A stretch of 64,000 nucleotides of DNA, from positions 10,722-74,721 of the IMG/VR virus record IMGVR_UViG_3300044451_000174; one strand, given 5' to 3'. This DNA is from a virus (Duplodnaviria; Heunggongvirae; Uroviricota; Caudoviricetes). Each line of letters opens with the position of its first letter. Position 1 is the stretch's first letter. A program made the position numbers and the translations under genes. Shown in pieces: positions 18,325 through 52,600 of this stretch. The notes beneath the pieces are model-generated. The model was not told where the DNA came from, searched no databases, and saw only the letters and a program-made list of their open reading frames with translations.

Positions 18325-18326
18325 GC

Positions 18327-34282: not shown

Positions 34283-34508
34283 AATTGGACCTGAGTTTCA
34301 TCAACCGTTCTCGCGCCGACTGAGAAAGACGGGCGGCTGCGAGAAGTTCTTCGATGGAAACGTCAACCTCCTTCAAGATAGAAGCACGAGGAGGACGGCC
34401 CTCTGGAATTGCGCTCATGTTTTCCACGCCTTTCCGCAACTCTTTGGCGTGCAACACGATCTGTTCGAGAAGGCTGTCTGCCGCATCCCATCCTTCTTGG
34501 AGTTCCAT
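34266..34508 (-). CDS. hypothetical protein (80 aa)
   Basis: ORF. This is the first gene of the minus-strand block. Confidence 0.4.
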   Translation of the reverse strand: MELQEGWDAADSLLEQIVLHAKELRKGVENMSAIPEGRPPRASILKEVDVSIEELLAAARLSQSARERLMKLRSNYVHSA

Positions 34509-34626
34509 GACGATTCTCCGGTTTCAGGAAACCTTATCAGTCAAATTAGGCTAAAACGGCCACGGAATCAAGACGAGCTTCAGAAAACGTGGGATCGGGA
34601 GTCATTTAAGGCGGGCTATATACCGC

Positions 34627-35121
34627 ATGGACTTGGGAATGATAGACCAGATGCTGCAAGACCTGAACAAGCAGCCGGCGGTAGTAAAACCTGTGGGCAA
34701 GGGGAGTTTGATCAACTTCACCTACCTGTACGCCAAGACGGGCCACCCGGTTTCACCGATGGTTCTGGTCACGGACGTGATGCCCGGATACATCCGGGGG
34801 GTCAACCTTCAGTACCTGACGCCCGGATACATCCAGCGGTTGCTCGACAAGAGATTTTCCAACGGGTGTGGCAATCCGAGGTTCTCGTACTTCAACATCA
34901 AGGGCGATGCGTTCATAACGTCCGCGTTTCGGCAGTACAAGAGGACCGGAGTCGCCAACCTGAGACAGTTAGACTGTTCCTTCTTGGCGAGCTTGATTCA
35001 GACGATGCGCGGAATCGACATCGGTCAGATTTATGCGTTCCAGAAGCAAGTGAGCGAACAGATCGCGAGAGCGACCAACCCGGTGGCACAAGCTACAGCA
35101 CCGGATGCACCGGGTAGTTAA
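34627..35121 (+). CDS. hypothetical protein immediately upstream of the tape measure gene, possible tail assembly protein (164 aa)
   Basis: ORF. The functional guess rests on position only. Confidence 0.45.
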   Translation: MDLGMIDQMLQDLNKQPAVVKPVGKGSLINFTYLYAKTGHPVSPMVLVTDVMPGYIRGVNLQYLTPGYIQRLLDKRFSNGCGNPRFSYFNIKGDAFITSAFRQYKRTGVANLRQLDCSFLASLIQTMRGIDIGQIYAFQKQVSEQIARATNPVAQATAPDAPGS

Positions 35122-35131
35122 TAGAGGATAA

Positions 35132-38100
35132 ATGGCTGATCCGCAACTTCACGTCGTAGTCGATGCAATCGGCCGCAACGTAAACATGAACATCGACCCA
35201 AACCAGTGGGACGAACTGAAAAGTTCGATCACCGCCGGTATGAAGTCAGTTGTCGGGGAAGTCGCGTCGGTCATCAGCCAGAAAACGTCGTCCCAGTGCA
35301 AGTCAATCGAAGCAGCTTTGAACGAAATGAGTTCGAGTTTCGCTGAAGAAATATCGGGCCTGAAGCGGGTGATGAACGAACTCGGCCAGAAGATCGACAA
35401 CATCGGCAAGGGAACGGGAACCCCAACTCTCGGCGGCGACGTAAGCGGTTCCTTGGGCGTGATTCAAACGAACACTCAGGCCGTTTCCGACTACGTCACA
35501 GGAGAGTTCAAAACCGCGTTCGCTGGTCAGGCGTCCGACATTCGCGCAATGAAAGACATGGCGTCAACGCCGGGCAAGTTCTTCACACACGACCAAGAAA
35601 CACACAGACTACTAGGCGACTTGAAAGCCGCCATCGAAGCGTGCTGTCCGGGTTCTTCGATTGTTGACAAGACCCCATCCGTAGCTCCTTCGCCGACAGA
35701 AAGGGCGGCTCCGAGTGCGGCACCATCGGGTGGCGGTGGTGGCGGGGGTGGTGGCGGGGGCGGTGGCGGGCCGAGTCCGATGGACCGTGCCAGAGCATTT
35801 GAAGCGGCCATGAATGCCGCGACCACGTCAAACGAGGGCATGAACGACTCGCTCACGCGGGGTCGAAGGGCTTATCGTCAGCACCGCGAAGACATGATGG
35901 CGACGGATGACGCACTTGAAGGTTTCATCGGCCACGTCGCCGATCTTCAAGAGGCGTTTTTCGTCTTCTCGAAGGACATGAGTTTCTTGAAGGATACGTT
36001 CCTCGGCACCTTCAAGTCCATGTTCAAGGAAGCCGTACACGAAGAAGTCAAGTTCATCAAAGAGACGCGGGCCGCGATCAACGAGACGCAAGGTCTGACA
36101 GCCGAGACACGAGGTCTTCAAGACGCGATGACGGACATCGGCAAGACCGCCAAGACAACCGGCGTCGGCCGCTCCGAGTTCCAGGCGTCTTACCTGAAGG
36201 CTCTGAAGTCGGGCATCAAGGACCAGAAGATCGCGATGGCGGTTACGACGGCCCAGTTGAACACCGAGAAGCAGTTGGGTCTTGAGGCCGGCGAACTGAC
36301 CGAAGAGTTCATCAAGTGGAACAACCAGTACAACATGTCCACCATGCAGATCGCCGAAATGGGGCGGGGCATGCGGGACATCGCACGCTACACAGGCTTG
36401 ACGGGCAAGGAACTCGCCAACGCCGTCAAACAGGGTGACAACTTCGTTGAGGTTCTCCGCAACGCCGCCATGTTGAGTGCGAGCGCAGCCAAGAACGTCA
36501 TGGAGATCGCCGCCAACGCCCAAAAGATGGGTGTGACTAAGCAGATCGAACCGCTGATCAAGGCGATGGCATCGACCAACAACTTGTTCCGCGAAGCGTC
36601 GAGCGAGACTCGCGCCTTCCTGTTCCAAGCCGCCGCCCAGGTCGGTCGCACGGGCGACTTGATGAAGGGTACGATCCTCAAGACGAAGGGCGGCATCAAG
36701 GACATGGAGAAGGGCATGGAGATGATGCTGAAGAAATTCGGCGTCCAATCCGTTGAGGCCATCGACAACCTGTCCGACGAAGCCAAGATGAAGCTCAACC
36801 TCCAGTTGAAGGCCGCATACGGTCTTGAACTCGGCGAGTTGCAGCAGTCGCTGAAGGCGTTGAAAGAGTCCAGCAAAACCCTGGCCGACCGCCTCGATGA
36901 CATCCGCAAGAAACAACAAGGCAACCTCACGCTGGAAGAAAAACTGGCGTTGAAGGAAGAGGAGCGTCGTCTCAAAACGAGCAAGAGCTTCGAGATGTTG
37001 ACGAGTTTGGACGAGGCGGCTAAGGGCGCTAAGGACATGAACGCCGCGTTGTCCAAGTTCGGAGAAAGAAGGAAGGACTTCGAGGGCGACCTGAAGGCGA
37101 TGGGTAAGTCGTGGGGCAGCAACGCCGGTGCAGCCCGTGACGCCATCAACGAAGCTTTGAAGGGTGTCAACGAGTCGCTGAAGGCGTCCGGCAAGTCGGA
37201 ACTGAGTATCGACTCTTCTGAGATCGAGAAGGCGTTGAAAGACCCTGCGGCGTTCCGCGAACTGTCGGCCAAGTTGACTAAGGCCGAACAAGAAGCCGCG
37301 ACCGCACAGAAGGCCGCTCTGGACCCGATGAGCAAGATCGAGCAGGGCGTCCGCGAACTGAACGACACGATGAGGAACTTCACCAGCAGTTTCCTTTCAA
37401 GTTACATGAACTTGACGGGAGTGTTGGGCGTATTGGCTCCGCTCTTGGGCATGATGGCGGCACAACAGGCGTTGTCCATCGCACGGTGGCGGGCCGACAA
37501 GGACTTCGGTGTGATGGGTGTGCTTAAAAAAGGCTTGGGCAAGATCTTCGGTTACGGCGGCAAGAAGAAGGGCGGGGCGGGGGACGTTGCACCCGGTGCG
37601 GCGGCTGGTTCAGGAGTTGATGCGGGCAAGGGCGTCGAGGCTTTGGCAAAAGACGGTTTGGGCGGCGTGTCTCACGTCGAAGACGACACGGTAGCAGGGT
37701 TGCTGCGTCAGTTGCTTCACTGCCTGTGCAGTCCGAAGGCCAACGGGATCGAGAACGACGAGTTCAAAAACATCGGCAAGAAGAATAAGGCCAATGCCGC
37801 CCAGATCGAACAAGGAGCGGTCGCCAAAGCGGAGAAGAAGGCGGGCGGGGCAGCGGCCAAAGAAAAAAGCAAGGCGTCGGCTGGTGGCGACGACACCAAA
37901 TCGATCCTAGACAAGATCGAGAAACTGAAGGGGGACGGACCAAGAATCGCTAAAGCGGCCGGCATCATCGCGGCACTGACAATCGGAATCGTGCTGTTGG
38001 GCGCGGTGTTGATCAAGTTGGCTAACATGTTGTTCAGCAAATTGAAGCTGGACATCAAGACGGTCATCGAGACGGCCGCGATCATCGGCGTGATCATGGG

Positions 38101-41100
38101 AGCGGCTGGACTGATCGGCACCGCCTTGTACTACGCCAAGCCACACCTCGACAAACTCGCGGATGCCGAAAAGGACATCAACGCGATGGTCAAGAACATG
38201 TGGAAGGGCGCTAAGGCGTTGGCGAAGTTGTCGGGTCCGCTGCTCGTGTTTGCGGCGGAACTCGCGATCTTCGGCAAGATCGTTCTGGGTGCGTTGGGGC
38301 TGAGTCCGGGCAGGTTGCTCCTGATCGCCGGAACGTGGATCGCGTTGGCTCTCGGTATCGCCGGAATCGCGGAAGCGATTGTCCGGTCTGGGCCGATGTA
38401 CGCACAACTCCCGGTCGCCACGAAGATGATGCACACGCTCCACAAAGAACTGTGGGCCGCTGTAGGTGCGTTCGGACTCGTGACTCTGCCGCTGATCGCG
38501 TTCGCCGCAATCATGGCGTTGTTCGGTTACGTCGTGATCGACAAGTTCGGGTTGACTCCGGGCCGCATGTTCGCCATTGCAGCGACGTGGTTGATCCTCG
38601 CCGTCGCGGTCGGAGCCATCGGGTACGCTCTCACGGCTTCGTTGCCGGGATGGGCGACAATGGGTGCCGGTCTGAGTGCCGTGTGGTCGATCTATCCGAT
38701 GCTGTGGAGTGCGGTGGCGGCGTTCGCGCTAGTCAGCTTGCCGCTCATCGCGTTCGCGGGCCTTCTCGCACTGTTCGGATACGTTGTCATCGACAAGTTC
38801 GGCCTGAGTCCGGGCCGCATGTTCGCCATTGCAGCGACGTGGTTGATCCTCGCCGTCGCGGTCGGAGCCATCGGGTACGCTCTTGCCGCCTCGTTGCCCG
38901 GATGGGTAACGATGGGTGCCGGTCTGTCGGTGATCTGGGCGTTGATGCCGGTGTTGCTAAACGCAGTGGCCGCATTCGCCTTAGTGAGTCTGCCGATCAT
39001 CGCGTTCGCGGCACTTCTTGCAGGGTTCGGGTACATCGTAATTGATCAACTCGGATTGACTCCGGGCCGTATGTTCCAGATTGCAGCGACATGGTTGATC
39101 CTCGCCGTCGCGGTCGGGGCCATCGGTTACGCTCTAACGGCATCGTTGCCCGGATGGGTAACGATGGGTGTCGGTCTGGGTGTGATCTGGTCGCTGCTCC
39201 CCCTGTTGTTCATGGCGGTTGCGGCCTTCGCGCTAGTGAGTTTGCCAATCGTGGCGTTCGCTGCGATTCTGGCCGCGTTCGGGACAATCGTAATTGACGA
39301 GCTTGGGTTGACGCCGAGTCGGATGTTCGACATCGCGGCGACGTGGCTGGTACTGGCAATCGGTATTGGGGCAATCTCCTACGCACTGATTGAGGCGACT
39401 CCGGGCTGGAGCATGTTGGGTATCGCCTACCCGTTCCTGCTTTACGCATACGGCTTGATGTGGTTGGGCGTGGGAGCATTCGCACTGGTAAGCTTGCCGA
39501 TTCTCGCTCTGGCCGAGATCATCGCCGAGTTCGGCGACACGCTTGACGAACTGGGTCTGACCCCGGAACGGATGAAGCAGATCGGCGAGACGTTCGTGAC
39601 GCTGTCTGAGACGATTGGCGAATTGTGCATGTCGATGTTGGGAGCCACCGCGAAATTGGCGGTCCTCGGCGTTCTGAGCATCTTCTCCGTTCTGATGATG
39701 AGCCTCGCGATGTTGGGCGTCGGTGCCTTCGCGGTGCTGGCGATCCCGATTTTGGCTCTTGGCAGTGCGATCTCCAACTTCGGCCGGACGATCATTGACG
39801 ACATGGGCCTGACCCCAGAACGAATGCAAGCCATTCAAGATTCGTTCACCTCGTTGACCGACACGATTAGGAGCCTGTCTTGGAAAATGATTTCGGCAAC
39901 GGCGTCACTATCGTTATTGGGCGTGCTTTTGATATTCTCAACTTTGGCTTCCACGTTTATATGGATGGGCGCGTTGGCATTCCTCGTGATGATGGGGCCG
40001 TTCCAGTTCTTGGCATACATGCTTTCCAAGTTCGCCGAATCAGTTGACATTGAAGGGGTGAAAAAAGCTGGTGAAATTTGCGAGGCGATTGCCAAGACGA
40101 TTAGTACGATTCCGCCAGTCATCAAGTCACTAACCGACGAATTATTACCGTTGATGGAACCGCGTTGGTGGGGTCTTGTTGGGCCAAGCAAGATGGAAAA
40201 AGCTCTTAAGGTAACAACAGGTTTCTTCAGTAAGAACTTTGCAGCAATCTTGAGTTTTATTTCTTACGGCATTATTGATCCAATCTTTGGCATTGGTCCC
40301 GGTGCCGCAGGTGTTAAACTCAATCCTCGCGACATTCAGACGGCCGCGAACGTGATGAAGGGGCTGGCTGATATGCTACCCGCTATTCCACCTGTGATTG
40401 ACGCACTGAATGGCCCAATTGCCGATCTGTCTAAAAAAAGTTGGTTTGGATACGGCAGTAACAAATTAGAAAAAACTCTGAATAAACTAAAAGACGGTTT
40501 CCATTCAAGTTTTGCGGCAATTTTGAATTTCATTTCTTACGGTATTATTGATCCGATATTTGGTATCGGTGCCGGTGCTTTTGGCACTAAACTAAATCCA
40601 CGAGATGTTCAAACCGCCGGTAAGATTATGAGTGGGTTGGCAGAAATGCTACCTGCTATTCCACCTGTGATTGACGCACTGAATGGCCCAATTGCCGATC
40701 TGTCTAAAAAAAGTTGGTTTGGATACGGCAGTAACAAATTAGAAAAAACTCTGAATAAACTAAAAGACGGTTTCCATTCAAGTTTTGCGGCAATTTTGAA
40801 TTTCATTTCTTACGGTATTATTGATCCGATATTTGGTATCGGTGCCGGTGCTTTTGGCACTAAACTAAATCCACGAGATGTTCAAACCGCCGGTAAGATT
40901 ATGAAGGGGCTGGCAGAAATGCTACCTGCTATTCCACCTGTGATTGACGCACTGAATGGCCCAATTGCCGATCTGAGCAGCAAAGGCTGGTTCAGCGGCA
41001 AGAATAAGTTGCAGAAAACGTTAGCCAAGTTGCAACAAGGTTTCCAGCAGAACTTCACGGCGATTTTAAGTTTCATATCACATGGTATTATTGGCCCTAT

Positions 41101-43204
41101 ATTCGGTGCCGGCCAAGCCGAGGGCGAGGGCATTATGTTAAACCCACGCTACATTCAAATGGCTGCAAATGTGATGAAAGGTCTGGCCGATATGCTTCCG
41201 GCCATCGGAACCATGATTGACACTCTCGGCAGTGGAATTCAGAAAATCCTGAAAAGCAGCAAAATGCGGATGAAGATGGACGCAATCGAAACGTTCGCGA
41301 CATGGTTCGCGAACGTAGCCCGCTTGCTGACCGAAGGTATGGTGATTCCGATCAAGACGCAGTTCCCGACCGTGGACGAAGTTCAGGACATGGGCGGAAG
41401 ACTTGAAGGAATGACGCAGATCGTTGCCAAATTGCCGAAGTTCATGGAGGATCTGTACTCCAAGATTAAAGAAGGTTTGGCACTGTTAGATCAAAACAAG
41501 ATCGAGGGCAACGAGGTAACACGATTTACGATATGGTTCTATAACGTTGCCTCGATGTTGAACTTCGGTATTGTGATGCCGATCACGACCGGATTCCCGC
41601 CACAGAAAGAAGCGGACGACGCTATCGCCAAGCTCGACAAGATGACAGAGATCGTATCAAAGTTGCCGTCAATCGTTCAGAGCTTGAGCGAGGCGACGGC
41701 CGGCGCTCGCGAGATGATGAAGAGTTCGGGCATTTGGGGCGCGTACCGCGACATGGACATGTTCATGTGGGAAGCGGGCTTCATCATCCGTCGCGGCGTG
41801 ATGGAGCCGATGCAGACATGGCCGAAAGACAGCGAGATGACCGACGCCGTTGCCCGCATCACCAAGATGGACGAAATGTTCAAGACGATGGCTCAGGCTA
41901 TGGAAAGCATGGCCGCGTCAGCTAAAGCTATGGCTTCTGTTGATCTAAGTCAGTCTATGAACATGGGGAGTTTGGGCAACCCTGAAAATGGCAACTTAGC
42001 CGAGTTCGTGAGTGCGTTCGCGGAACAGAACGCCGAGTCGATGGGCATGAACGATACTAATTCTTTGGTTGATGTGATGGGTCAACAATCTCCACAAATC
42101 ACATCGATGCAAAGTGCTTTGCGAATTGTCGAGAACTACACCCACGACATCAAGGATCTGTTCGAGCGGTCGTCCAGTGTCATCGGTGACATCCAGAAGA
42201 CCAGCGAGTACATGTCGATGTTCGGTGATTTGGACTTCTACGAGAACCAGATCTCCGAGAAGATCGCGCAGAGCAAGCAGTTCGTGCCGACCGTCCAGAG
42301 GATTGCAGAGAACATCGGTAAAGGCTTCGACTTTGCCGGCGGCAAGGCGTTGCTCGAAACCATCGCCGGACAGAAAGTCCGCATGGATGAAATGGCGGCG
42401 GGTCTGAAGGAAACAGAAGACTACACCAAGAAATTGGCGGAAATCTTCACGATGGCGAACAACGCCGTCAACATGATCAAGCAGACCACCAACAACCTGA
42501 CGCAACTCAATGCCATCAAAGACGTTGAGAAAGAAATTACGGCCAAGATCGCGTCGGGCAACAGCTTCATGGTGTCGGTGTTGAAGACGGTCGAGGCGGT
42601 CGCCACCAACTTCGGAACCAACGAAGAGGTCAAGACGACTCTGATGGGTGTGCAGGCCAAGATCAAGGCGGCGGGCGACACGAATCAGGCGTTGACCGAC
42701 TCTTTAAAGTTCATCGAGACGGTTAAACAGTTGCAGAGCAACGTGTTGTCAATCGGCCAAATGGCCAAAGACAAGCCGCTTGGCGGTGGCGTGCCGGGTG
42801 CCGGCGCTCCTGTCAGCATCCCGGCCGCTAAGACCGGATTGAGTACGCCTGAGCCGGTACAGACCGCTTCGACAACGGGCGCGGCCAACTTGGACGTTGA
42901 GAAGACGATCATGAGAGATCAGGCGACTTCTCAGCCGCCGGCCGGTGGCAACAAGAACGCGGTCGATTTCAGCAACTTGCAGAAGGCGATTGAAGAGAAC
43001 AAGATGACCAACGACGAGATCCTCAGCGTGCTTCAGGCCATGTTGCGGCTGATGACGCCGCGTTCTGGAAGCAACACGGCACCGGGCGGGGACACGAATA
43101 CATATTCGCGTCCCGACAAGCCGGCTGCTTACTACCGCGCACCCGTTGGCGACTTCAACAGTTCCGCAGGTAAGGGTGCCACCAACATGGTAAGGACCAG
43201 ATAA
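35132..43204 (+). CDS. tail tape measure protein (TMP), 2690 aa, with internal tandem repeats and multiple transmembrane hairpins
   Basis: Giant ORF directly upstream of the baseplate genes. It has alpha-helical low-complexity regions, a Gly14 run, 252-bp repeats that encode paired transmembrane helices, and 273-bp repeats. Confidence 0.7.
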   Translation: MADPQLHVVVDAIGRNVNMNIDPNQWDELKSSITAGMKSVVGEVASVISQKTSSQCKSIEAALNEMSSSFAEEISGLKRVMNELGQKIDNIGKGTGTPTLGGDVSGSLGVIQTNTQAVSDYVTGEFKTAFAGQASDIRAMKDMASTPGKFFTHDQETHRLLGDLKAAIEACCPGSSIVDKTPSVAPSPTERAAPSAAPSGGGGGGGGGGGGGGPSPMDRARAFEAAMNAATTSNEGMNDSLTRGRRAYRQHREDMMATDDALEGFIGHVADLQEAFFVFSKDMSFLKDTFLGTFKSMFKEAVHEEVKFIKETRAAINETQGLTAETRGLQDAMTDIGKTAKTTGVGRSEFQASYLKALKSGIKDQKIAMAVTTAQLNTEKQLGLEAGELTEEFIKWNNQYNMSTMQIAEMGRGMRDIARYTGLTGKELANAVKQGDNFVEVLRNAAMLSASAAKNVMEIAANAQKMGVTKQIEPLIKAMASTNNLFREASSETRAFLFQAAAQVGRTGDLMKGTILKTKGGIKDMEKGMEMMLKKFGVQSVEAIDNLSDEAKMKLNLQLKAAYGLELGELQQSLKALKESSKTLADRLDDIRKKQQGNLTLEEKLALKEEERRLKTSKSFEMLTSLDEAAKGAKDMNAALSKFGERRKDFEGDLKAMGKSWGSNAGAARDAINEALKGVNESLKASGKSELSIDSSEIEKALKDPAAFRELSAKLTKAEQEAATAQKAALDPMSKIEQGVRELNDTMRNFTSSFLSSYMNLTGVLGVLAPLLGMMAAQQALSIARWRADKDFGVMGVLKKGLGKIFGYGGKKKGGAGDVAPGAAAGSGVDAGKGVEALAKDGLGGVSHVEDDTVAGLLRQLLHCLCSPKANGIENDEFKNIGKKNKANAAQIEQGAVAKAEKKAGGAAAKEKSKASAGGDDTKSILDKIEKLKGDGPRIAKAAGIIAALTIGIVLLGAVLIKLANMLFSKLKLDIKTVIETAAIIGVIMGAAGLIGTALYYAKPHLDKLADAEKDINAMVKNMWKGAKALAKLSGPLLVFAAELAIFGKIVLGALGLSPGRLLLIAGTWIALALGIAGIAEAIVRSGPMYAQLPVATKMMHTLHKELWAAVGAFGLVTLPLIAFAAIMALFGYVVIDKFGLTPGRMFAIAATWLILAVAVGAIGYALTASLPGWATMGAGLSAVWSIYPMLWSAVAAFALVSLPLIAFAGLLALFGYVVIDKFGLSPGRMFAIAATWLILAVAVGAIGYALAASLPGWVTMGAGLSVIWALMPVLLNAVAAFALVSLPIIAFAALLAGFGYIVIDQLGLTPGRMFQIAATWLILAVAVGAIGYALTASLPGWVTMGVGLGVIWSLLPLLFMAVAAFALVSLPIVAFAAILAAFGTIVIDELGLTPSRMFDIAATWLVLAIGIGAISYALIEATPGWSMLGIAYPFLLYAYGLMWLGVGAFALVSLPILALAEIIAEFGDTLDELGLTPERMKQIGETFVTLSETIGELCMSMLGATAKLAVLGVLSIFSVLMMSLAMLGVGAFAVLAIPILALGSAISNFGRTIIDDMGLTPERMQAIQDSFTSLTDTIRSLSWKMISATASLSLLGVLLIFSTLASTFIWMGALAFLVMMGPFQFLAYMLSKFAESVDIEGVKKAGEICEAIAKTISTIPPVIKSLTDELLPLMEPRWWGLVGPSKMEKALKVTTGFFSKNFAAILSFISYGIIDPIFGIGPGAAGVKLNPRDIQTAANVMKGLADMLPAIPPVIDALNGPIADLSKKSWFGYGSNKLEKTLNKLKDGFHSSFAAILNFISYGIIDPIFGIGAGAFGTKLNPRDVQTAGKIMSGLAEMLPAIPPVIDALNGPIADLSKKSWFGYGSNKLEKTLNKLKDGFHSSFAAILNFISYGIIDPIFGIGAGAFGTKLNPRDVQTAGKIMKGLAEMLPAIPPVIDALNGPIADLSSKGWFSGKNKLQKTLAKLQQGFQQNFTAILSFISHGIIGPIFGAGQAEGEGIMLNPRYIQMAANVMKGLADMLPAIGTMIDTLGSGIQKILKSSKMRMKMDAIETFATWFANVARLLTEGMVIPIKTQFPTVDEVQDMGGRLEGMTQIVAKLPKFMEDLYSKIKEGLALLDQNKIEGNEVTRFTIWFYNVASMLNFGIVMPITTGFPPQKEADDAIAKLDKMTEIVSKLPSIVQSLSEATAGAREMMKSSGIWGAYRDMDMFMWEAGFIIRRGVMEPMQTWPKDSEMTDAVARITKMDEMFKTMAQAMESMAASAKAMASVDLSQSMNMGSLGNPENGNLAEFVSAFAEQNAESMGMNDTNSLVDVMGQQSPQITSMQSALRIVENYTHDIKDLFERSSSVIGDIQKTSEYMSMFGDLDFYENQISEKIAQSKQFVPTVQRIAENIGKGFDFAGGKALLETIAGQKVRMDEMAAGLKETEDYTKKLAEIFTMANNAVNMIKQTTNNLTQLNAIKDVEKEITAKIASGNSFMVSVLKTVEAVATNFGTNEEVKTTLMGVQAKIKAAGDTNQALTDSLKFIETVKQLQSNVLSIGQMAKDKPLGGGVPGAGAPVSIPAAKTGLSTPEPVQTASTTGAANLDVEKTIMRDQATSQPPAGGNKNAVDFSNLQKAIEENKMTNDEILSVLQAMLRLMTPRSGSNTAPGGDTNTYSRPDKPAAYYRAPVGDFNSSAGKGATNMVRTR
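38450..39960 (+). repeat. about six tandem 252-bp (84-aa) repeats inside the TMP gene encoding paired transmembrane helices
   Basis: Near-identical stretches such as ccgggccgcatgttcgccattgcagcgacgtggttgatcctcgccgtcgcggtcggagccatcgggtacgct recur at 252-bp spacing. The peptide repeat is FALVSLPLIAFA...GLTPGRMF..IAATWLILAVAVGAIGYAL. Confidence 0.7.
40230..41050 (+). repeat. three tandem 273-bp (91-aa) near-identical repeats inside the TMP gene, AT-richer than their surroundings
   Basis: Antisense ORFs at 40336, 40609 and 40882 are spaced exactly 273 bp apart. The peptide repeat ILNFISYGIIDPIFGIGAGAFGTKLNPRDVQTAGKIM..LPAIPPVIDALNGPIADLSKKSWFGYGSNKLEKTLNKLKDGFHSSFAA occurs three times. Confidence 0.75.
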
Positions 43205-43743
43205 TGGCTAGAGCTACGGAAAAAGGCTCGTGCAGACTGAAACCTATCAGGAATTGTTACATCACAATTCCCGGCTACGGCCCGATCTTCATGAACAACT
43301 TGCCCGAACTGAGCGACGGCAAGAGCGCCAGTTATCCTGACACGACGATCATTGGTCGTTCGTTCCCGATCAAGGCGTTCAGCCACTCGGAAAACAGGTC
43401 GATCAGTTGGGCGATGCACTTGTTCGTCGTGTCGAAGCAGGACATCAACGACAACTTGATCTTGATGAGGAAGCTGGAGTCCTGTGTCTATCCGAGGAAC
43501 ACGGGACCGGGTCCGTATGCGCCGCCGCTGATCTGTCAGTTGAAGTGCGGGGAGCTTCTGAGTGTGGGGAACCAGCCTTTGAACGCGGTTCTGAAAAGTT
43601 ACAGTGTGAAATTCCCGACCGACGTGGCGTGGGATGAAGACAAGCTTACTCCATTTAAGATGGACATCGATCTCAGCTTCGAGGTCGTTTATAGCAGCAA
43701 CAATTTGCCTGGGGCCGAAAGAATTGTCAACCTGGGCATGTAA
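43204..43743 (+). CDS. putative tail protein in the gpU or tube-initiator position (179 aa)
   Basis: Sits between the TMP gene and the LysM protein gene. ATGA-type overlap with the TMP gene. No diagnostic motif. Confidence 0.35.
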   Translation: MARATEKGSCRLKPIRNCYITIPGYGPIFMNNLPELSDGKSASYPDTTIIGRSFPIKAFSHSENRSISWAMHLFVVSKQDINDNLILMRKLESCVYPRNTGPGPYAPPLICQLKCGELLSVGNQPLNAVLKSYSVKFPTDVAWDEDKLTPFKMDIDLSFEVVYSSNNLPGAERIVNLGM

Positions 43744-43749
43744 ACCGAG

Positions 43750-44076
43750 GTGACAGTGGCCAACTTCTTTGAAGAAACGAACATAAACCCCAGAACTTAC
43801 TTCACTGCCGCGAGTCGGTATTCCGACTCGACCATCTGCTATTACACGGACATGAAACGCCTGTCACTTACGACGTACAAGCGTGGCGTTTCTGCCGTGA
43901 CCCCCAACGACAAATTCATGGTAATCGGGAAGGGCCAAGAGTACCGTCCCGATCTGGTCAGTAGTCGCGTCTACGGTCTGCCCGATTTCTGGTGGCGGAT
44001 CATGGAGGCTAACGGGATCTACGACATTTACGACTTCAAGGCCGGCGTCAACATCCGAATCCCCTCAATGATCTAA
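43750..44076 (+). CDS. LysM-like tail protein (P2 gpX / T4 gp53-like)
   Basis: PDLVSSRVYGLPDFWWRIMEANGIYDIYDFKAGVNIRIP fits a LysM pattern. Confidence 0.55.
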   Translation: MTVANFFEETNINPRTYFTAASRYSDSTICYYTDMKRLSLTTYKRGVSAVTPNDKFMVIGKGQEYRPDLVSSRVYGLPDFWWRIMEANGIYDIYDFKAGVNIRIPSMI

Positions 44077-44085
44077 GGAAAACGT

Positions 44086-45519
44086 ATGTCTTGTAACGCA
44101 ATTTGTTTGCCAGAATATCAATGTGGTGATCTACAAAAAATAAAGCCCAACACTGGCGCGGTTTACGCACCATTTGTGACAATGACATTGGGTGGAACTA
44201 TCACCGTTGGTAACAAATCATTCCCAGGAGAACCCAACACAGCCTGCATCAAATCTTTTGAATTTGGCGGCTCGACTGGTGCTGGCTGTACTGTAGAAAT
44301 AATTGATGAATCTGGTGGTAGTTTTGTGAGATATTTCAATGCAGTTAACAAAAATTTATGTCAAGCCGCCGATGATCACAATATGGAAATTAACTTTGGA
44401 TGGATCTCCAGATCGACAGATGGAAATTTAACCAAAATCGGAATTCCTGAAGGGCCGATATTTTTCATACCCGGAAAAATAGAAAGCGTGTACGAAGGAG
44501 GTGTTATAAAATACACGTTGAATGGAACCGATATGTTAACCCACATGGCAGAAAGTCGCGTGCAAGTACCTGTTGGAACAGAATCAAATAAAGTTAGATT
44601 GATGCCGGCGGTAAGAAAAATGGCGTCAAGAAATTGTCCACCACTCAATAACATCAGATATTTAAGACGAAATGGACCAAATCTAACTGAATGGAGATTC
44701 AAAAATAGTGATGGCGGGCCAGAGGGTCCAATGGGAGTTTGGCAGGGAGATCAACAAAATCCTATTTCGGCCATGAGAAAATTTTTCAATTCCTTGACGA
44801 CAGACCGTAATAAAGGATTTTATGCTATTTGGAACTCTGGGTCATCAGTTCCAGAACTTTGGTTCATGGAAGATTCGCGACCATATTGTGACGAAACGTC
44901 TAATGGATTTTTTTGTGCTGGAACTTACATTGTAAACGGAGGAGATTGCAGCCCTGTAATTAGCTTTAACCCAAAAGCAGAATGGCAATATACTGCTGAT
45001 CTTAATTCGGGTGGTAACTTGGGAGGTGCCACATCTGCTAAGAATATAGAACAACGACCGCCAATAGAACAAAGACGAAGCGGGAATTGTAAGGACATAA
45101 CCACTACTCAACGTGGTGCTGGTACTACAACACAATTCGCCGCACCACAAAACGACATCAATTGGCGGTCGCCAGATCAAATTACTCCAAAAATGCAAAA
45201 AGCTATGGCGGAACACGAAACGGCGGCACACTACAAAGAGCTGCAAGCGCCTATGGAAGCCGAGTTAAAAATACATGGCGACACAAGCTTTGTCCATCAA
45301 TCGCGATGGGCCGATGCTGTTGTTTCGATAATCGTAATAAATCCATTTCAAATTTTTTCAGGTGGTTCATACCACGAATGGCTCGCCGGGCCAATGTGTA
45401 ACCCAATTTTTTCAGACAAAGAATGGATGATAAAAGGTGTTAACCATCAAATTTCTGATGGAGCTTATACTACGACCTTAAAAGTACAATGTATGAATGT
45501 AAACAAGACTGAACAATAA
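44086..45519 (+). CDS. putative baseplate hub protein (gpD/gp27-like position), encoded in an AT-rich segment
   Basis: 477-aa ORF between the LysM protein and the gpV-like spike. GC content is visibly lower than in its neighbours. Confidence 0.4.
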   Translation: MSCNAICLPEYQCGDLQKIKPNTGAVYAPFVTMTLGGTITVGNKSFPGEPNTACIKSFEFGGSTGAGCTVEIIDESGGSFVRYFNAVNKNLCQAADDHNMEINFGWISRSTDGNLTKIGIPEGPIFFIPGKIESVYEGGVIKYTLNGTDMLTHMAESRVQVPVGTESNKVRLMPAVRKMASRNCPPLNNIRYLRRNGPNLTEWRFKNSDGGPEGPMGVWQGDQQNPISAMRKFFNSLTTDRNKGFYAIWNSGSSVPELWFMEDSRPYCDETSNGFFCAGTYIVNGGDCSPVISFNPKAEWQYTADLNSGGNLGGATSAKNIEQRPPIEQRRSGNCKDITTTQRGAGTTTQFAAPQNDINWRSPDQITPKMQKAMAEHETAAHYKELQAPMEAELKIHGDTSFVHQSRWADAVVSIIVINPFQIFSGGSYHEWLAGPMCNPIFSDKEWMIKGVNHQISDGAYTTTLKVQCMNVNKTEQ

Positions 45520-47633
45520 TGACAAATTTATCAGACCAAATACGACAACTAGAAACAGAACTAAAAAAAGTTAAAGCTGTTCTTTCTTCAAGTCAATACG
45601 AAATGGCTAAAGTCGCAACTACGACTTTGAACGACCGTACCCACATTGTTTCTCAATCAGAACAAATGTTTGGCATGTACACTGCCCTGTGTGTTGAAAC
45701 CAAAGATGTTTGGAAACAGAACCGCATCCGTTTTTATTGCCCCTTGTTCCAGTCTCCCGACAGCCCGATGAAAAGTCTGCCGTGGGCGTGGCCGATCTCG
45801 CCTATGGGCGGGTTTGATGATTCCGGCTGTTCGTGGGTGCCACCAGCCGGCTCGACCGTCTGTTTGATTTTCGAGGGCGGCGCGAGAAACGCACCTTTCT
45901 ACATTGGCACAACGTGGCATCGTAACCGAGGACCAGAAGGGGCCAATGTATGGACCATTGACATCGCGGAGTACCAGAAGGTGTGGTCGGGTCACCGCAA
46001 GGGCTACCTGTGTGGACCCAACGACGAGAGCCAGTGTTTGCCGCCGTGGAACACCGAATCTTCAAACGGGTTCGACCTTAATAGCATCGTTGACTTCGAT
46101 GCGAACCCGGAAGCCCAAAAGATGTTGACCTACCCGCACATTTACGGGTTCAAGACGCCAGAAAAACACATGCTCAAAATGGTTGACGGCGATGCGTCGT
46201 GTGACCGCCGGTGGAAAAGACTTGAGATACTCTCGTCTTGCGGCAACTGGCTGATCTTCAAAGACGATCACCTGCACTACGCCGGCCAATACGCACACCC
46301 GACCACGGGCGGCGTTGTCAAAACGGGTGACGTGACGTGCATCGAAGGTGCCGCACCCGGCATCGACATTACCAGGGCAATCGGCCTCGGCGATTTCTTG
46401 CCGGACTTAAACCCCGTTGACTCCGGGGCCGATTTCGGCAGTGCGGACGAAGGGTCAGTGGAAGACGACACGCCGAAAGAGGGAGCTAAAATTTCAAACC
46501 CCGCTTGCAGTGCAAAAATTGTTGGCGGTCATCCCGACACACCTTACTTCCCGTCGTGGAAACCGACCAAATATCAAAAACAACAGATAGGCGCGAACCC
46601 TTTTTTCAAACACGAAAACGAGTGCCGACCGTATCGCGGGCCGGGCAACAACCGTAACAACACCGCCATGTTGCCCCAGAGCGGCATCCAGATGATGTCT
46701 ATCAGCGGCCACACATGGGTCATGGACGACTCGGTCGAAGAACCGACTGGCGATTGCGTGTGGGAACGATCACTACGACCGTTCGACTATGGGTGCAACA
46801 ACATTTTCAACGGTTACATGGGACTGTTCAGCAGTTCGGGTCACAAATTCATCATGAGTGACATCGAGCAAGACGAGCCGAACAAAAGGGGCGAAGACAA
46901 TTACATCCGTCTAGAGTCGCAGGCAGGCAACATCATCGAACTCAACGATATGGAGAAGGAGATCGGGATCGCCGGTTTCCGTCGCGGCATCAGCATGCGT
47001 TCGACCAGCAAACACTTGTTCATGATGATCGATGAGGACAACGAGCAAGACTTGATCCCGCGAAGCGATGGTAACCAACCGGTCAACAAGGCGAAGAAAG
47101 CGTTCATCAAGATCCGGTCGGGTTACGGTATCGAGTTCAAGATCGAGGACACCAACTCGCAGGAGAATACGGTTGCCCAGTCCCTGCAAATGTTCTGTCC
47201 GCAGAAGGACAATACCGAGCGTGGCCCGCACATCATGAGGTTCCAAGAGGCTCCGAGTGGTCCGGGTCAAATCATGCTTCGTGCCGGCGGCGACTACATT
47301 ACAATAAGTTACGACGATCACGTCGAGATGGTGGGCGACAAGGAAAAGAATCCAAGTAACAAGATCGGCATCATTTCCAAGAACAAGGTCGTGTCAACGG
47401 AACAGGTTTACATCAACCTCGCCCGCATGCACGTCTTCTTGGCTAAGGAACAGATCCTGTTGTTGGCCGGTCAGGATTGTCCGTCCGAGAACGGCGAGAT
47501 GGCTCCGTGTCCGGCACAGATCCTCGTGTACCACGAGGGCAAGATCAAGATCAGTGACCGCGTCATCGGAAGCTGTTCCCCGAAGGCTCCGTGTGCGTCG
47601 ATCTTCATGATGTCGCCGTTCGTTTCGTGCTAA
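45519..47633 (+). CDS. baseplate central spike protein (P2 gpV / T4 gp5 / VgrG-like), 704 aa
   Basis: WAWPISPMGGFDDSGCSWVPPAGSTVCLIFEGGARNAPFYIGTTW matches the gpV OB-fold signature WA.v..p.aG...G....P..G..V.v.F..GD...P...G. Confidence 0.7.
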   Translation: MTNLSDQIRQLETELKKVKAVLSSSQYEMAKVATTTLNDRTHIVSQSEQMFGMYTALCVETKDVWKQNRIRFYCPLFQSPDSPMKSLPWAWPISPMGGFDDSGCSWVPPAGSTVCLIFEGGARNAPFYIGTTWHRNRGPEGANVWTIDIAEYQKVWSGHRKGYLCGPNDESQCLPPWNTESSNGFDLNSIVDFDANPEAQKMLTYPHIYGFKTPEKHMLKMVDGDASCDRRWKRLEILSSCGNWLIFKDDHLHYAGQYAHPTTGGVVKTGDVTCIEGAAPGIDITRAIGLGDFLPDLNPVDSGADFGSADEGSVEDDTPKEGAKISNPACSAKIVGGHPDTPYFPSWKPTKYQKQQIGANPFFKHENECRPYRGPGNNRNNTAMLPQSGIQMMSISGHTWVMDDSVEEPTGDCVWERSLRPFDYGCNNIFNGYMGLFSSSGHKFIMSDIEQDEPNKRGEDNYIRLESQAGNIIELNDMEKEIGIAGFRRGISMRSTSKHLFMMIDEDNEQDLIPRSDGNQPVNKAKKAFIKIRSGYGIEFKIEDTNSQENTVAQSLQMFCPQKDNTERGPHIMRFQEAPSGPGQIMLRAGGDYITISYDDHVEMVGDKEKNPSNKIGIISKNKVVSTEQVYINLARMHVFLAKEQILLLAGQDCPSENGEMAPCPAQILVYHEGKIKISDRVIGSCSPKAPCASIFMMSPFVSC

Positions 47634-47647
47634 TTCAAAGAGGATAA

Positions 47648-48079
47648 ATGCCGGCAATGAAGTTTTTGGGTGTTCCTTATCCCATTACACCGCACCCGCG
47701 AGGATACTTGAGATCGAGCGGGGGCATCAGTCAGATCAAGTCCGATCTTTTGCAGTTGCTGCTCACCAACCCCGGCGAGAGGGTGATGCTGCCGACTTAC
47801 GGCACGCCCCTCAAGAAGTTCATCTTCGAGCAGAACGACGCGATCTCGGCCGAGAGCGTGCGACAGGCGATCATCAATTCGATCAACCTGTGGGAGCCGA
47901 GAATAACGGTTCAAGAAATCACCGTTAAAAACAGTGCGGACGAAAGTCAATTAAACCCTCAAGATCCCAAAGAAGACTTGGAGAACGTGATGTCTATTAC
48001 GATCAGGTTCTTCGATCCTGAGAACATTCAAGAGGTCGATGCCGTGGTAATCGAACTACCAGTAGGTGGAGTACAATGA
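47648..48079 (+). CDS. baseplate wedge protein gpW / gp25-like
   Basis: LLLTNPGERVMLPTYGTPLKKFIFEQNDAISAESVRQAIINSINLWEPRI aligns with P2 gpW TAPGERVMRPDFGCGL...FEPND.......V..AL..WEPRI. Confidence 0.8.
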   Translation: MPAMKFLGVPYPITPHPRGYLRSSGGISQIKSDLLQLLLTNPGERVMLPTYGTPLKKFIFEQNDAISAESVRQAIINSINLWEPRITVQEITVKNSADESQLNPQDPKEDLENVMSITIRFFDPENIQEVDAVVIELPVGGVQ

Positions 48080-49638
48080 GTGAATGCCCTTTCAACGTAG
48101 AACCGTTCTCACAGTCCGGCCCGCTGGCGGCTCCGAACGTCGTCAACCTGAACTACACGAACCAAGACTTTTGGTCGATGAAGTCGCGGCTGATCGACTT
48201 CATCAAATCGAATTTCCCCAACGACTTCAACGACTTTGTCGAGTCGTCGCTGGCGATCATGTTGATCGAGAACTGGGCGTTCATTGCCGACACCTTGTCC
48301 TTCAAGATCGACCAAATCGCCAACGAAGTTTTCATCGACACCGTCACCGAGGTCGAAAACGCATTCAGACTTGCCAAATTGGTCGGCTTCAATCCGCAAC
48401 CGCCGATTGCGGCGCGGTCGATGTGGTCGGCAACACTGAACAACCCGGTGCTGGCAGACGTTACCATCCCGGCCCCGTTCGACGTGACGGTGACGGCCGG
48501 AAACGAGTCCATCAGCATCGAGCTTTTCCCCGCCGACGCTGACGGGAACCCGATCTACGACCAAGACATTCTGATCCCCGCCGGTACGGTCGTGAACAAC
48601 AGCGTGGTGGGTCTTGAGGGGTTCACTTACACCGACACGTTCCCCGGAACCGGCTTGGTCGGGCAGACCTATACCCTCAGCTACTTCCCGGTGATTTTCG
48701 ACAGCATTCGCGTGGACGTGGACGGCGTCAGGTGGACCCAGGTGGAACAGTTCACCGACTCTCAACCCCGGCGCGAGTACAGGGTCGAGTTCAACAGCCT
48801 CTGGCACGCTTTCATCATCTTCGGCAACAACCGGGCGGGCCTGATTCCGTCGCAGGGATCACAGATTGTTGTCACATACCGGAAGGGCGGCGGGACGGTA
48901 GGTAACATCGTCACACAGTCGATCACGTCGGAAACCGTCGTGCCGCTACCCGGTTTTGAATACTCCGTCCCGGTCGGCCTCAGCAACTACACGCAGGGCC
49001 AGTTCGGGTACGACGGCGACACGGTTGATGACGTTCGCAGCAAGCTGCCGGCTTGGTTGGCGCTTCAGAACAGGTGCGTGACGGGTTCGGACTACAAGAC
49101 GTTCGCGGACCAATTCGCCTCCCCGTACCAGGGGCAGACGGGCAAATCGACGGCGGTTCTGAGGAACCAGGGGTGCGCGGCCAACGTCATCGACCTTTAT
49201 GTTCTGGTTCGGGGGACCACGCCGTCGTCCGCGAACGATCTGCAACTCGCTTCGAGTCAGTTCAAAGCCGAACTCGGTGACGCGATCTCACAGGTCCAGA
49301 TGTTCACGGACTTCGTCTGCATCAAAGACGGGTCGATATTGCTGGTCGATGTGTCAATCGACGTGGTCATGAACAAGTTCTACAAGAAGTTCGAGGACCA
49401 GTACCGGACGATGGTGACGCAGAAAGTCGCGTCCTTCTTCTCGCTGCCGAACTGGGAATACGGCAAGTCGCTCAGGCAAGAAGACCTCGGCAAACAGTTG
49501 TCAACGATCCGCGAGGTCAACAGGTTTGAAATGAACTTCATGACCAACGACCCCGAAAACAGCGGCGTTCTGGTGACCGCCAACTACAAGCAGATCATCC
49601 GCCCGGACACGATCACAGTAACATTTGTATACGAGTGA
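48076..49638 (+). CDS. baseplate J-like protein (gpJ/gp6 family)
   Basis: About 520 aa, immediately after the gpW-like gene as in P2 and Mu. Overlapping start. Confidence 0.55.
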   Translation: MSECPFNVEPFSQSGPLAAPNVVNLNYTNQDFWSMKSRLIDFIKSNFPNDFNDFVESSLAIMLIENWAFIADTLSFKIDQIANEVFIDTVTEVENAFRLAKLVGFNPQPPIAARSMWSATLNNPVLADVTIPAPFDVTVTAGNESISIELFPADADGNPIYDQDILIPAGTVVNNSVVGLEGFTYTDTFPGTGLVGQTYTLSYFPVIFDSIRVDVDGVRWTQVEQFTDSQPRREYRVEFNSLWHAFIIFGNNRAGLIPSQGSQIVVTYRKGGGTVGNIVTQSITSETVVPLPGFEYSVPVGLSNYTQGQFGYDGDTVDDVRSKLPAWLALQNRCVTGSDYKTFADQFASPYQGQTGKSTAVLRNQGCAANVIDLYVLVRGTTPSSANDLQLASSQFKAELGDAISQVQMFTDFVCIKDGSILLVDVSIDVVMNKFYKKFEDQYRTMVTQKVASFFSLPNWEYGKSLRQEDLGKQLSTIREVNRFEMNFMTNDPENSGVLVTANYKQIIRPDTITVTFVYE

Positions 49639-49641
49639 GGC

Positions 49642-52600
49642 ATGGCAGAGAAAACAATCTATGAGGTGCCGAGTGTTACGGATACGGTGGTCATTCCTTT
49701 CTTGACCCCCGACGCCGACCAATGCTTGCTCCAGAACCCCTACATGGTCAACAACCTGACCATTTACTACATCGAACGCGACTTCTCAGGCGGCAACGTC
49801 ACGCAATTTGACGTTGAAACCCGGAACCAAGACGCGGAGCGGGCGGCGACCGAAGCACAGAACGCGGCGTGCCTTGACCCGACTCAGGAGAACATTCTTG
49901 AGGCGCGAAAACTACGCGCCCAGGCCGACTCCATGAGGGTTTCGCGACCCGTGTATTACAACGACGCCGTCCCCGTTGCGGTGATCGGCAACTCGTCTTA
50001 TCCCGCTTGGCTCTCGACCGACACACCCAACGCTCTCATCGAAAACGTACCGCTTGACGAGGAAGGTAACACCGTATACGGCCACTTCCAATACGTTTGG
50101 AACCCGGTGGGTATGCGAGAGGGCAACTACATCGCGTGCTGGACGTGGACGCCCCTCGCGGCCGGGGAAACGCTTTCGCAAAACCTTTCCTTCTCGTTGA
50201 TGGGCAACAACGCCATCACCACGAGCATCCCGACCCACGCCACGCCGCCGGAAAAGTACCAAACTCTGCTGGACACATACCTCCCAGAGATGTACAAATC
50301 CACGCTCTCCGAAGACGACGTGACCCCGTCCGTTCTGACCAGATTCAACAAATCGGTCGGCCAGGGGTTCACGGTGTTGGAGAATCTCGCCAACCAGATC
50401 TTGGACATCATGGACGCCAACTCGACTGACGAGGCGTTCTTGGGCCTTCTGGGGCGGATGTTCGGGCTGAAGCTGAGGAGCGAAGACCCGACCCGTTGGC
50501 GGAAGCAGATCAAGTTGGCGGTGCCGCTTTACAAGATGAAGGGAACTCGCGCCGGGCTGGAGATGGCGTTCGATTTGGCCGGCATGAGGATGACGAGCTT
50601 GGTTCGCGGCTGGCAGATCATTTCGCCGTACACATGGGTGGAAACCTTCAAAGCGGCCGGCGGCGAAATGGAGTTCGTGCTGTCCCGTGTCGCACAACCA
50701 ATTGATTCAGACAACTTTGAAGTGTCCGTCAGAAAGGCGGGCAACTCGTACTACACGGACTACCTGCCATCAGACGTGTCGATCAACACATCGGACGGCG
50801 TCAGCACACTAACGATTGAGAACAACATCTCGCTCGAAAACGGCGACATCCTTCGAGTGCTGTACCAGTACGCGGCGATCCCGAACCCGACGCAACAGGA
50901 CATCGAGGACTACATTCGTTTGTTGCCGTTGACCGATCAGCGGGACGAAACGGTTCAGGACTACCCGCCGAAAAACTGGAACGTTCGACTGCTCGAAGAG
51001 AACGACCCGTTGTTTTCGATCTTGATTCCCAACAAGCACCCGTACCACGACTTCTTGGTGTTCGGTAAGATCAGGACCGAGTTCCCGTACAGCGAAAACG
51101 TCTATAACATGGACGAATACAACGGCTCGATTAGGGACAGTCTCGAACCGTGCGACATGGACAAGGACTTCGTTGACCCGTGCAGCCAGTGCTTGGGCAG
51201 CAAGTACATCATCGACATTGAAGTTGACCGCCTTTGCGACGACCGGGTGAACGAGGCCAAAGACATCCTGAAGGAGTTCGTCCCGTTTCACGCCCTGCCC
51301 CAGACCATCAACTTCAGCGGCTCGATGGAGGACTTCGTTCAGCCGCCCGTCGAGACGATTGAGTGCCTGATTTACTATCGCGGGAGCGAGACAGTAATCG
51401 CCGGCAGCGATCAAATGGTCTTCAACCGCGCGATGATTCCGAGCGGCATGCCGCTCGACCAAATTCTGAGAAACACCCTCGCTACGAGTACGCTCGTAGC
51501 GAGCGGAACCGCCACAGCCTACAACAGACAGATCATGTTGTTCTCGCCGGACGTTCCGATCAGCAACACCGGCCTGAGTACCGACCCGACCGAAACGGTG
51601 CTAGAAATCTACGGCCCGCACCCGCACGCCGGTAACTACCAAGTCACCAACGCGGTCGGACACGCGGTCGAAGTTTACGGCCCAATCTCGCCGACATCGC
51701 CATTGACGGAGCCGATCAATCAGTCGGCCTTCTCGTTCAGCCTGTCGAACATCATTTACGAAAACTCCGACACCTCCATTGTGACCGACAATTTCTACAA
51801 GTTGAAGGACGCGACTTGGGACTTGGCAGAACTGGGCGTCAAGAGCCAGTGGGACGTTGACAACGGGTACGCTACGACGGCCTGGACGATCAAGATGACG
51901 GCGTACAGTGCCACGCCGTACACGATCCAAGACATAAAGCCCGAAGGCGAGATCGTGATCGCTCAAGACCCTTCCCTGCCAAACGTGAACGCGACGGGTG
52001 TGGCCTATTCGATCATCCGCCCGGACGCGAGCGTGGCACACACAGGCACCTTGAATTTGTCGGTTGAGCTTCGCGGACTGGTAACTGTCACGGACGGGGT
52101 GCTGACCGACGTTCGCGGGGTAATGATCCAGCCGCTCGCGGGGCAATACTTTTTGTACTACAACGATACCGGCGACCAGTACGTCGTCAGTGAATTGGTG
52201 GACGGCGAGACACACCAGTTTTACATCAACGGCTGGTCGGGCGGTTCGGTGGGCGGAAAGAGTATCGCTTTGTATGATCGGCTGATCGATACGCGGTACG
52301 GCTTACTTACTTATCAGGGTATCGGCCTGAACACGGTGATCAACTACGAATCGTCGTTGGGCATCTCGAACGGCCAAAACCCGGTACTGGTTCCGCTGGA
52401 AGACAGCAAGTTCAAAGAGAACTTCATCGTCGTGATCAATGACCCAGTCAACGGGGCGGATGAAGAGACTTTTGCGATTGCCGACATCGACGGGACTACG
52501 ATCACCCTGGACGGTGACATTCACTACTGGACGACTTTGGGTAACGGGGGGACGAGCGTGCCGTTCGAGATTTACAACTACGAAACTCTTCCGGTGACTG

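Follow-up and report, generated by a model that had tools for sequence, protein, structure and literature searches.

A giant candidate tape measure protein with an array of membrane-type hairpins, from an unannotated protein family of uncultured huge phages

The DNA considered here is a 64,000-nucleotide stretch (the window) of the IMG/VR virus record IMGVR_UViG_3300044451_000174 (positions 10,722 to 74,721 of that record; Caudoviricetes), within which a single giant open reading frame (ORF) runs from 35132 to 43204 on the plus strand. An earlier note, made by a model from the letters of the window, had described this frame as encoding a 2690-aa tail tape measure protein (TMP) with two internal repeat families. 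The frame is indeed intact, with an ATG start and no internal stop codons, and at 2690 aa (~285 kDa) its product is the longest among those of the structural genes, the next largest being 1051 aa. We argue that this candidate is most likely the TMP of an uncultured huge phage and that it belongs to a large protein family which has so far gone unannotated, a reading that rests on the position of the gene, on the combination of conserved ends with a variable middle, and on the fold matches of the conserved core.

The limits of the domains in the giant protein were set by homologue coverage, hydropathy and repeat analysis. The protein opens with a variable N-terminus containing a Pro/Ala-rich stretch (aa 1–259) and, within it, a run of 14 Gly codons (GGT/GGC/GGG; 35729..35770, +; aa 200–213), homorepeats being a common trait of TMPs (PMC13585406). 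A conserved all-alpha core follows (aa 260–790; 35909..37501, +), delimited by the homologue coverage map and by modelling with AlphaFold2 (AF2), and closed by the first hydrophobic helix of the protein (aa 759–777). A Gly/Lys/Ala-rich linker (aa 791–936) then leads into a hydrophobic array of 15–25 transmembrane (TM)-like segments (aa 937–1668; 37940..40135, +), which houses the first repeat family, and from there into the array of the second family, which, with the degenerate units recognised by a hidden Markov model (HMM), extends over aa 1639–2260 (40046..41911, +). The remainder consists of a helical region (aa 2261–2560) and a conserved C-terminal module of ~120–130 aa (aa 2561–2690; 42812..43204, +), which is probably the end that docks on the baseplate hub. 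Neither a signal peptide nor an enzyme domain was detected in the protein. The AF2 model of the core (pLDDT 79.7, pTM 0.77) is all alpha and has the form of a compact multi-bundle domain, not of an extended coiled coil. A second model, of the repeat region, is likewise all helix, the core alone being modelled with confidence; its low-confidence secondary structure has two helices of ~34 residues per unit in both repeat arrays.

Family 1 comprises seven clear 84-aa (252-bp) units at 38183..39943 (+; aa 1018–1604). The earlier note had recognised this repeat, with a count of about six units and approximate limits of 38450–39960 that are corrected here; degenerate units flank the clear ones. Each unit consists of two hydrophobic helices with an I-D-x-x-G-L-T-P-x-R-M turn between them, and seven copies of the motif G[LM][ST]P[GSE]R[LM] follow one another, 84, 84, 84, 84, 83 and 84 aa apart. 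Units 2–4 are 74–79% identical at the nucleotide level. Because the outer units have diverged (40–64%), the program TRF finds only 3.4 copies, at 78%. A family HMM, trained on the repeat units of this protein and of its three closest homologues, recognises an additional degenerate unit at aa 940–1010 and a partial unit at aa 1607–1668. That the array is no chance pattern follows from its reproduction, without an indel as far as 39387, in the independent assembly L010 (a JGI assembly of the same phage, 99.94% identical with no gaps), and, for this family and the next alike, from the presence of both arrays with other unit counts in the related proteins P0001–P0003.

The hydrophobic character of the array is pronounced: between aa 937 and 1632, the residues A/G/I/L/V/F/M/W make up 72% of the sequence and charged residues 9%. 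A Kyte–Doolittle scan (19-aa window, threshold 1.6) places 633 residues of the giant protein in hydrophobic segments, the equivalent of ~25 TM helices, and a stricter, Hessa-type summation of dGapp gives 15 non-overlapping 19-aa windows at or below 1 kcal/mol. Each central family 1 unit holds two such low-dGapp windows, one on either side of the turn. The pair of TM helices about a GLTPGRMF turn that had been proposed for each unit is supported, in the central units, by the agreement of these two hydropathy scales, on which a family 1 unit is a predicted membrane hairpin.

Family 2, previously described as three near-identical 273-bp units at 40230–41050, is likewise a genuine repeat, with four clear 91-aa (273-bp) units at 40139..41227 (+; aa 1670–2032), of which only units 2 and 3 form a near-identical pair, with 3 differences in 273 nt. 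This pair appears as a near-perfect tandem repeat with a 273-bp period and 2.18 copies at 40382..40975 (+). Unit 1 is 66–67% identical to units 2 and 3 at the nucleotide level and unit 4 is 61–62% identical to them at the protein level, and beyond the four clear units the HMM follows the family through two or three degenerate units to aa 2260. By eye, families 1 and 2 resemble each other in a [hydrophobic helix]-G-Y-x-I-I-D ... L-x-P-x-R turn; an hhalign comparison of the two unit alignments gave no support (E=0.57, one aligned column), and a common origin is not claimed.

The family 2 units are, as the earlier note observed, richer in AT than their surroundings, with a GC content of 0.40–0.41 against a window average of ~0.57. 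GC at third codon positions (GC3), which is ~0.75 more generally, falls sharply from 0.7–0.87 to 0.23–0.47 across ~40170–40980, and the near-identical pair lies inside this trough. A trough of this kind suggests DNA taken up from a relative of lower GC content; most simply, recombination with such a relative brought in the segment, and one of the imported units was then duplicated. Of the recent expansion that had been proposed, one duplication is retained and three copies are not. The near-identical pair has at most 63% identity to any unit in the databases, and a scan of IMG/VR with family 2 peptides gave no match that would indicate a donor. One related lineage has an overall GC content of 0.445, and its own giant gene has a flat GC3 profile. 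A second low-GC3 patch (0.23–0.45 against ~0.75) is found at 44086–45670, where it takes in a 477-aa gene from end to end and runs ~150 nt into the spike gene that follows; this patch, too, has the look of DNA recombined in from a relative of lower GC content. The 477-aa protein is 60% identical to its counterpart in the related contig L001, as against 69–80% for its neighbours.

A first-round search of a 5.8-billion-sequence collection recovers 66 homologues of 1614–4404 aa, some of them on contigs as long as 670 kb and none (0 of 66) with a trusted Pfam domain. When the core is used as a profile, the search extends to 444 representative clusters at E ≤1e-3. The coverage map shows aa ~280–770 to be common to all 66 first-round homologues, and the conserved core is the sole part of the giant protein that all family members have in common. 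At the other end of the protein, at least 138 of 197 members finish with the C-terminal module, which has the pattern ...KP..YYR...G...Q..GK...N.G. Between these ends, length varies widely, the 129 apparently full-length members ranging from 1066 to 5363 aa with a median of 2260. A long hydrophobic array after the core is a hallmark of the family: at least 4 TM-equivalents are found there in 166 of the 197 members (median 13), their number correlates with protein length (r=0.79), and the count of TM-type helices per chain, 15–25 here, reaches ~36 in relatives. The longest relatives are P0105 (5363 aa), P0029 (4404 aa) and P0023 (4239 aa), up to twice as long as the protein described here.

Megablast and tblastn searches of 50,697 phage records return LR756511, an unannotated 595-kb uncultured phage, as the sole match, over aa 343–505. 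The nearest full-length relative, P0003 (2707 aa, 40% identity), is encoded on a 586-kb contig of GCA_040384205.1, where the genes that flank it are 58–93% identical to their counterparts in the window, so that the giant gene evidently evolves faster than its neighbours. Repeat counts differ among the related proteins, from 6 to 9 for family 1 (7, 9, 8 and 6 units in the protein described here, P0001, P0002 and P0003, respectively) and from 4 to 7 for family 2 (4, 7, 4 and 5 in the same order). The first repeat units are positionally orthologous across lineages (58–69%). Internal family 2 units, on the other hand, are most alike within their own protein (99, 85, 80 and 74% in the four lineages), which indicates that duplication or homogenisation has been recurrent and lineage-specific. 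This turnover fits the model in which TMPs evolve by the duplication and loss of units (Belcaid et al., 2011, PMC3271669). The anatomy of the protein, the architecture of the family, the gene order and the turnover of repeats between lineages can all be seen in the sequences themselves.

The gene order places the giant ORF squarely within a tail operon. It is co-oriented with the structural genes, from which it is separated by a 10-nt gap upstream and with which it shares a 1-nt overlap downstream. Directly upstream lies a 164-aa gene (34627..35121, +), a possible assembly chaperone without a family match, which is 163–172 aa in relatives and occupies the same slot in L001, in a second related contig, L005, and in the contig of P0066. 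Directly 3' of the giant gene there is always a gene of the kind found here at 43204..43743 (+; 179 aa), followed by a 108-aa baseplate-type protein (phrog_7145; 43750..44076, +), by the 477-aa gene mentioned above, which stands in the position of the hub (44086..45519, +; GC3 0.33) and has no family match, and by a 704-aa spike with a Phage_base_V OB domain of the gp5/VgrG type (45519..47633, +). The block continues with a gp25/gpW-like baseplate wedge protein (47648..48079, +; PF04965 on homologues), a gp6/gpJ-like baseplate wedge protein (48076..49638, +) and a 1051-aa tail protein (49642..52797, +) that is gpI-like in relatives (Tail_P2_I, weak). This order (163–172 aa, giant, ~177 aa, ~108 aa, ~480–500 aa, ~700-aa spike, gp25/W-like, gp6/J-like, ~1050-aa gpI-like) is shared by the window with L001, L005 and the contig that carries P0066, the most distant homologue, and persists in relatives with a core only ~29% identical. 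Lying as it does immediately upstream of a P2/Mu-type baseplate block, the giant gene stands where tail modules of the P2/Mu type and of phage G have their TMP gene, and conserved ends about a middle that varies five-fold in length are the design expected of a ruler.

The structure of the core may point in the same direction. In a Foldseek comparison of the core model with the viral models of BFVD, nearly all of the best 50 matches that carry a name are TMPs or minor tail proteins, with E values of 7e-4 to 5e-2 and probabilities mostly of 0.85–1.0; against the PDB the same model finds nothing specific.

A number of observations nonetheless weigh against the assignment. The TM-scores of these model-based matches are low (0.2–0.4), and the enrichment in TMPs is only partly independent evidence, since most long all-alpha proteins of phages are TMPs in any case. 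The TMP models of Pfam, PHROG and NCBIfam (PF10145, TIGR01760) do not match the giant protein, nor do TMP models match ten shorter members of the family; 16 core sequences give single weak matches only (PF10145, E=0.021; phrog_167, E=0.014), and hhalign comparisons of the core profile with lambda gpH, phiKZ gp181 and phage G gp183 are negative. The protein has, at the level of sequence models, no demonstrable membership in the curated TMP families. For the repeat region (aa 1186–2040), the AF2 model built from a 4-sequence alignment is unusable, with a pLDDT of 37.9. No frameshifted chaperone pair of the gpG/GT style accompanies the gene, as no alternative frame extends the 164-aa gene, and no sheath or tube genes are identified in the window. 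An overlapping 280-aa ORF at 34275–35117 was considered as a frameshifted chaperone and rejected as a spurious high-GC frame, being 37% identical to L001 where the 164-aa protein is 80% identical. The TMP identity proposed in the earlier note is supported by position, architecture and fold matches and not by the sequence models of known TMP families. At least one study, of a large-phage lineage, reports no TMP to be identifiable (PMC12619734).

Given this absence from TMP families at the sequence level, one might suppose that the giant protein is instead a "pilot", a membrane effector of the tail lumen or baseplate which is ejected to build an entry pore, the true ruler being a smaller protein encoded elsewhere. 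A hydrophobic content unlike that of reference TMPs and a core modelled as compact rather than extended would suit such a role, and TMP-related cargo is known from contractile injection systems (PMC13277306). We consider this improbable, however, as the giant gene sits in the exact TMP slot in every relative examined, the tail module contains no second long all-alpha ORF, the five-fold variable middle between conserved ends is the signature of a ruler, and the fold matches go to TMPs; the two roles are in any case compatible, canonical TMPs being themselves ejected. The many TM-like helices could also be taken to mark a host-membrane-anchored assembly or replication factor that is not part of the virion at all, its linkage to the baseplate genes being regulatory only. 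This we regard as very improbable indeed, for the protein has no signal peptide, enzyme domain or match to a non-structural family, its gene is strictly co-oriented with and tightly spaced among structural genes, and terminal modules conserved across the family fit a protein that docks. The giant protein, then, most probably works as, and is, a TMP.

A different kind of alternative bears on the near-identical 273-bp pair, which might be a product of short-read assembly, through collapse or an arbitrary choice of path. The same phage (99.8–100% identical) is present in several public short-read assemblies (Logan SRR35359074, SRR35363250 and SRR35386001; JGI 3300045005 and 3300045421), none of which spans the giant gene. 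The JGI contig behind L010 stops ~5650 nt into the ORF, at ~40781, and the Logan contig L006 starts at 40946, so that two independent assemblies of this phage (99.9–100% identical) terminate within 40382–40975, inside the duplication; other contigs stop at 35486, 35681 and 35689, the latter two ~40 nt before the Gly-codon repeat. An exact-sequence look-up of the full-length protein in the collection returned no record, and no assembly there carries the complete product. Breaks at this place are, on the other hand, the expected outcome of a genuine tandem repeat, the copies differ at 3 positions and have the diverged units 1 and 4 on either side, which calls for at least two distinct copies, and relatives too have similar adjacent internal units, at 74–85% identity. 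An assembly product is therefore a serious possibility for the pair or its copy number, though the less probable one, and under it a "recent expansion to three copies" would be uninformative about the real genome. We take the repeat to be real and its copy number in the window to be provisional, given that two further assemblies come to an end within the near-identical units.

If the protein is a ruler, what length of tail does it specify? The TMP of phage G has 2893 aa for a tail of 450 nm, or 1.56 Å per residue (PMC8570332), and at that ratio 2690 aa would correspond to ~400–420 nm. The ~400-nm tail of the earlier note is plausible on this precedent. The ratio presumes a fully extended helix, whereas ~1300 residues of the giant protein belong to helix-turn-helix units; hairpin packing of the repeat arrays would cut the estimate to ~300 nm, and a pure volume bound, for 3–6 copies in a lumen of 35–40 Å, gives 82–215 nm. 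With these ~1300 residues resembling helical hairpins and the core modelled as a compact domain, the defensible range would be ~200–400 nm.

In the mechanism that we envisage, a few copies of the protein would lie in the lumen of the tail tube during assembly, anchored on the hub, and would set the number of tube and sheath rings. The middle zone, an array of 84-aa helical hairpins followed by one of 91-aa helix-loop-helix units, would gain or lose whole units by unequal recombination, changing the length of the protein and with it that of the tail. After contraction of the sheath, the protein would be expelled ahead of the DNA, and the 15–25 membrane-competent helices of each chain could insert in the host envelope and form a conduit through which a genome several hundred kilobases long would pass. 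From the features described above we infer ruler function, ejection and a channel alike. As a comparator for the last of these we use T5 Pb2, which we take to be a membrane-inserting TMP, and channel formation by the giant protein would be consistent with both lambda gpH and Pb2. TMPs are expelled at infection, with a trans-envelope channel role supported for lambda (PMC12617516) and discussed for the TMP-like cargo of contractile injection systems (PMC13277306), so that the channel idea fits established biology. More speculatively, and less probably than not, this lineage may have turned the TMP into a large injectable membrane machine, in which 3–6 chains, each with 15–36 membrane-spanning helices, would be held lipid-free in the lumen and would, after ejection, build a trans-envelope conduit of 50–200 helices without a described counterpart, the number of hairpins being tuned by recombination together with tail length.

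Size alone does not make the protein notable, phage G having a larger one. What is new here is the scale of the membrane-type hairpin array, which goes far beyond that of known TMPs and recurs across a widespread, unannotated huge-phage family; full-text searches of one collection of papers found no description of TMPs with such hydrophobic arrays. At least 444 clusters of proteins of 1066–5363 aa in the TMP slot of huge phages escape Pfam, PHROGs and NCBIfam, and profiles of the core and of the C-terminal module would fill this gap in TMP annotation for the present family and possibly for others. Since repeats fragment the gene in short-read assemblies, such proteins are systematically under-recovered. 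Should the ruler rule hold, the lengths in the family would predict tails of ~150 to ~800 nm, and the morphology of uncultured huge phages could be read from sequence; the longest relatives would imply tails approaching 0.6–0.8 µm, longer than any measured phage tail known to us. A hairpin block of ~700 aa in the tail lumen also raises the questions of how it is kept soluble and what structure it builds in the host envelope.

Several other genes of the window deserve mention. Upstream of the tail operon, a conserved group of genes for proteins of 163, 491, ~84–98 and 163 aa (27428–30132, +) is present also in L001 and L005. Their sizes would suit a sheath-and-tube pair; neither sequence nor profile searches matched the 163-, 491- and 163-aa proteins to anything in Pfam, PHROG, NCBIfam or the PDB, although for the 491-aa protein there are more than 925 close homologues, the 120 best listed being 57–100% identical. 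Just upstream of the operon, and kept in relatives, is a gene or ORF pair (679 + 108 aa; 31526–33888, −) resembling the major vault protein (MVP), a plus-strand ORF at 31199–33595 (798 aa) having been rejected in its favour. L007 and L010 encode an identical product on which PF11978, the shoulder domain of MVP, is recorded, as it is for the homologue of 881 aa in L001, and viral MVP homologues have been described in a 2023 preprint (10.1101/2023.11.10.566534). A 516-aa protein of the PolyA_pol family (tRNA nucleotidyltransferase or CCA-adding type; 25355–26905, −) adjoins the tail region in relatives as well, and phage G has an analogous gene. Between tail genes lies a LAGLIDADG homing endonuclease with C-terminal HTH domains (53301–54320, +; GC 0.46), and further away are an ADP-ribosylglycohydrolase (phrog_6572, E=3e-64; 345–1475, +), an AAA-type ATPase (13568–14755, −) and a protein with an HNH endonuclease domain (17308–18498, −). 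No tRNA genes were found in the entire 64 kb.

Among the closest known systems is gp183 of phage G, which is also a giant, mostly helical protein of a huge phage, encoded in a contractile-tail module directly upstream of the baseplate genes, and which at 2893 aa exceeds the present protein in size. The two have no detectable homology (hhalign probability 0.9%; BLASTP E ≥0.96). Moreover, gp183 has a lysin domain and is preceded by a frameshifted chaperone pair, neither of which is found here, and has no hydrophobic segments on either scale, as against 15–25 in the giant protein. The jumbo myophage phiKZ of Pseudomonas also has a very large protein associated with its tail, gp181 (2237 aa), which is annotated as a tail-associated endolysin, has no hydrophobic segment by the same criteria and thus no hydrophobic array, and has no homology to the giant protein. 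With the TMP core of PF10145 (PhageMin_Tail) and TIGR01760, the likeness lies in a helical domain of several hundred residues, on the N-terminal side, that is built of short helix-loop units; the difference is that no match reaches threshold, with 1 of the 16 core sequences at E=0.021.

Lambda gpH and T5 Pb2 are comparable to the giant protein as rulers that leave the tail lumen on infection and whose hydrophobic segments are proposed or shown to contribute to the trans-envelope DNA channel (PMC12617516 for lambda). They serve non-contractile tails, and they differ in hydrophobic content, with one or two marginal segments in 853–1219 aa: by identical criteria lambda gpH, which has no sequence similarity to the giant protein, has no hydrophobic segments, and T5 Pb2 has one weak segment on the Kyte–Doolittle scale and none on the strict scale, in contrast to the hairpin array of ~700 aa described here. 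The units of mycobacteriophage TMPs, for their part, are reportedly short. The length of those proteins evolves, as here, by the in-frame tandem duplication and loss of units (PMC3271669); they are, however, proteins of siphophages, whereas the units of the giant protein are helical hairpins of 84 and 91 aa, one class of which is of the membrane type.

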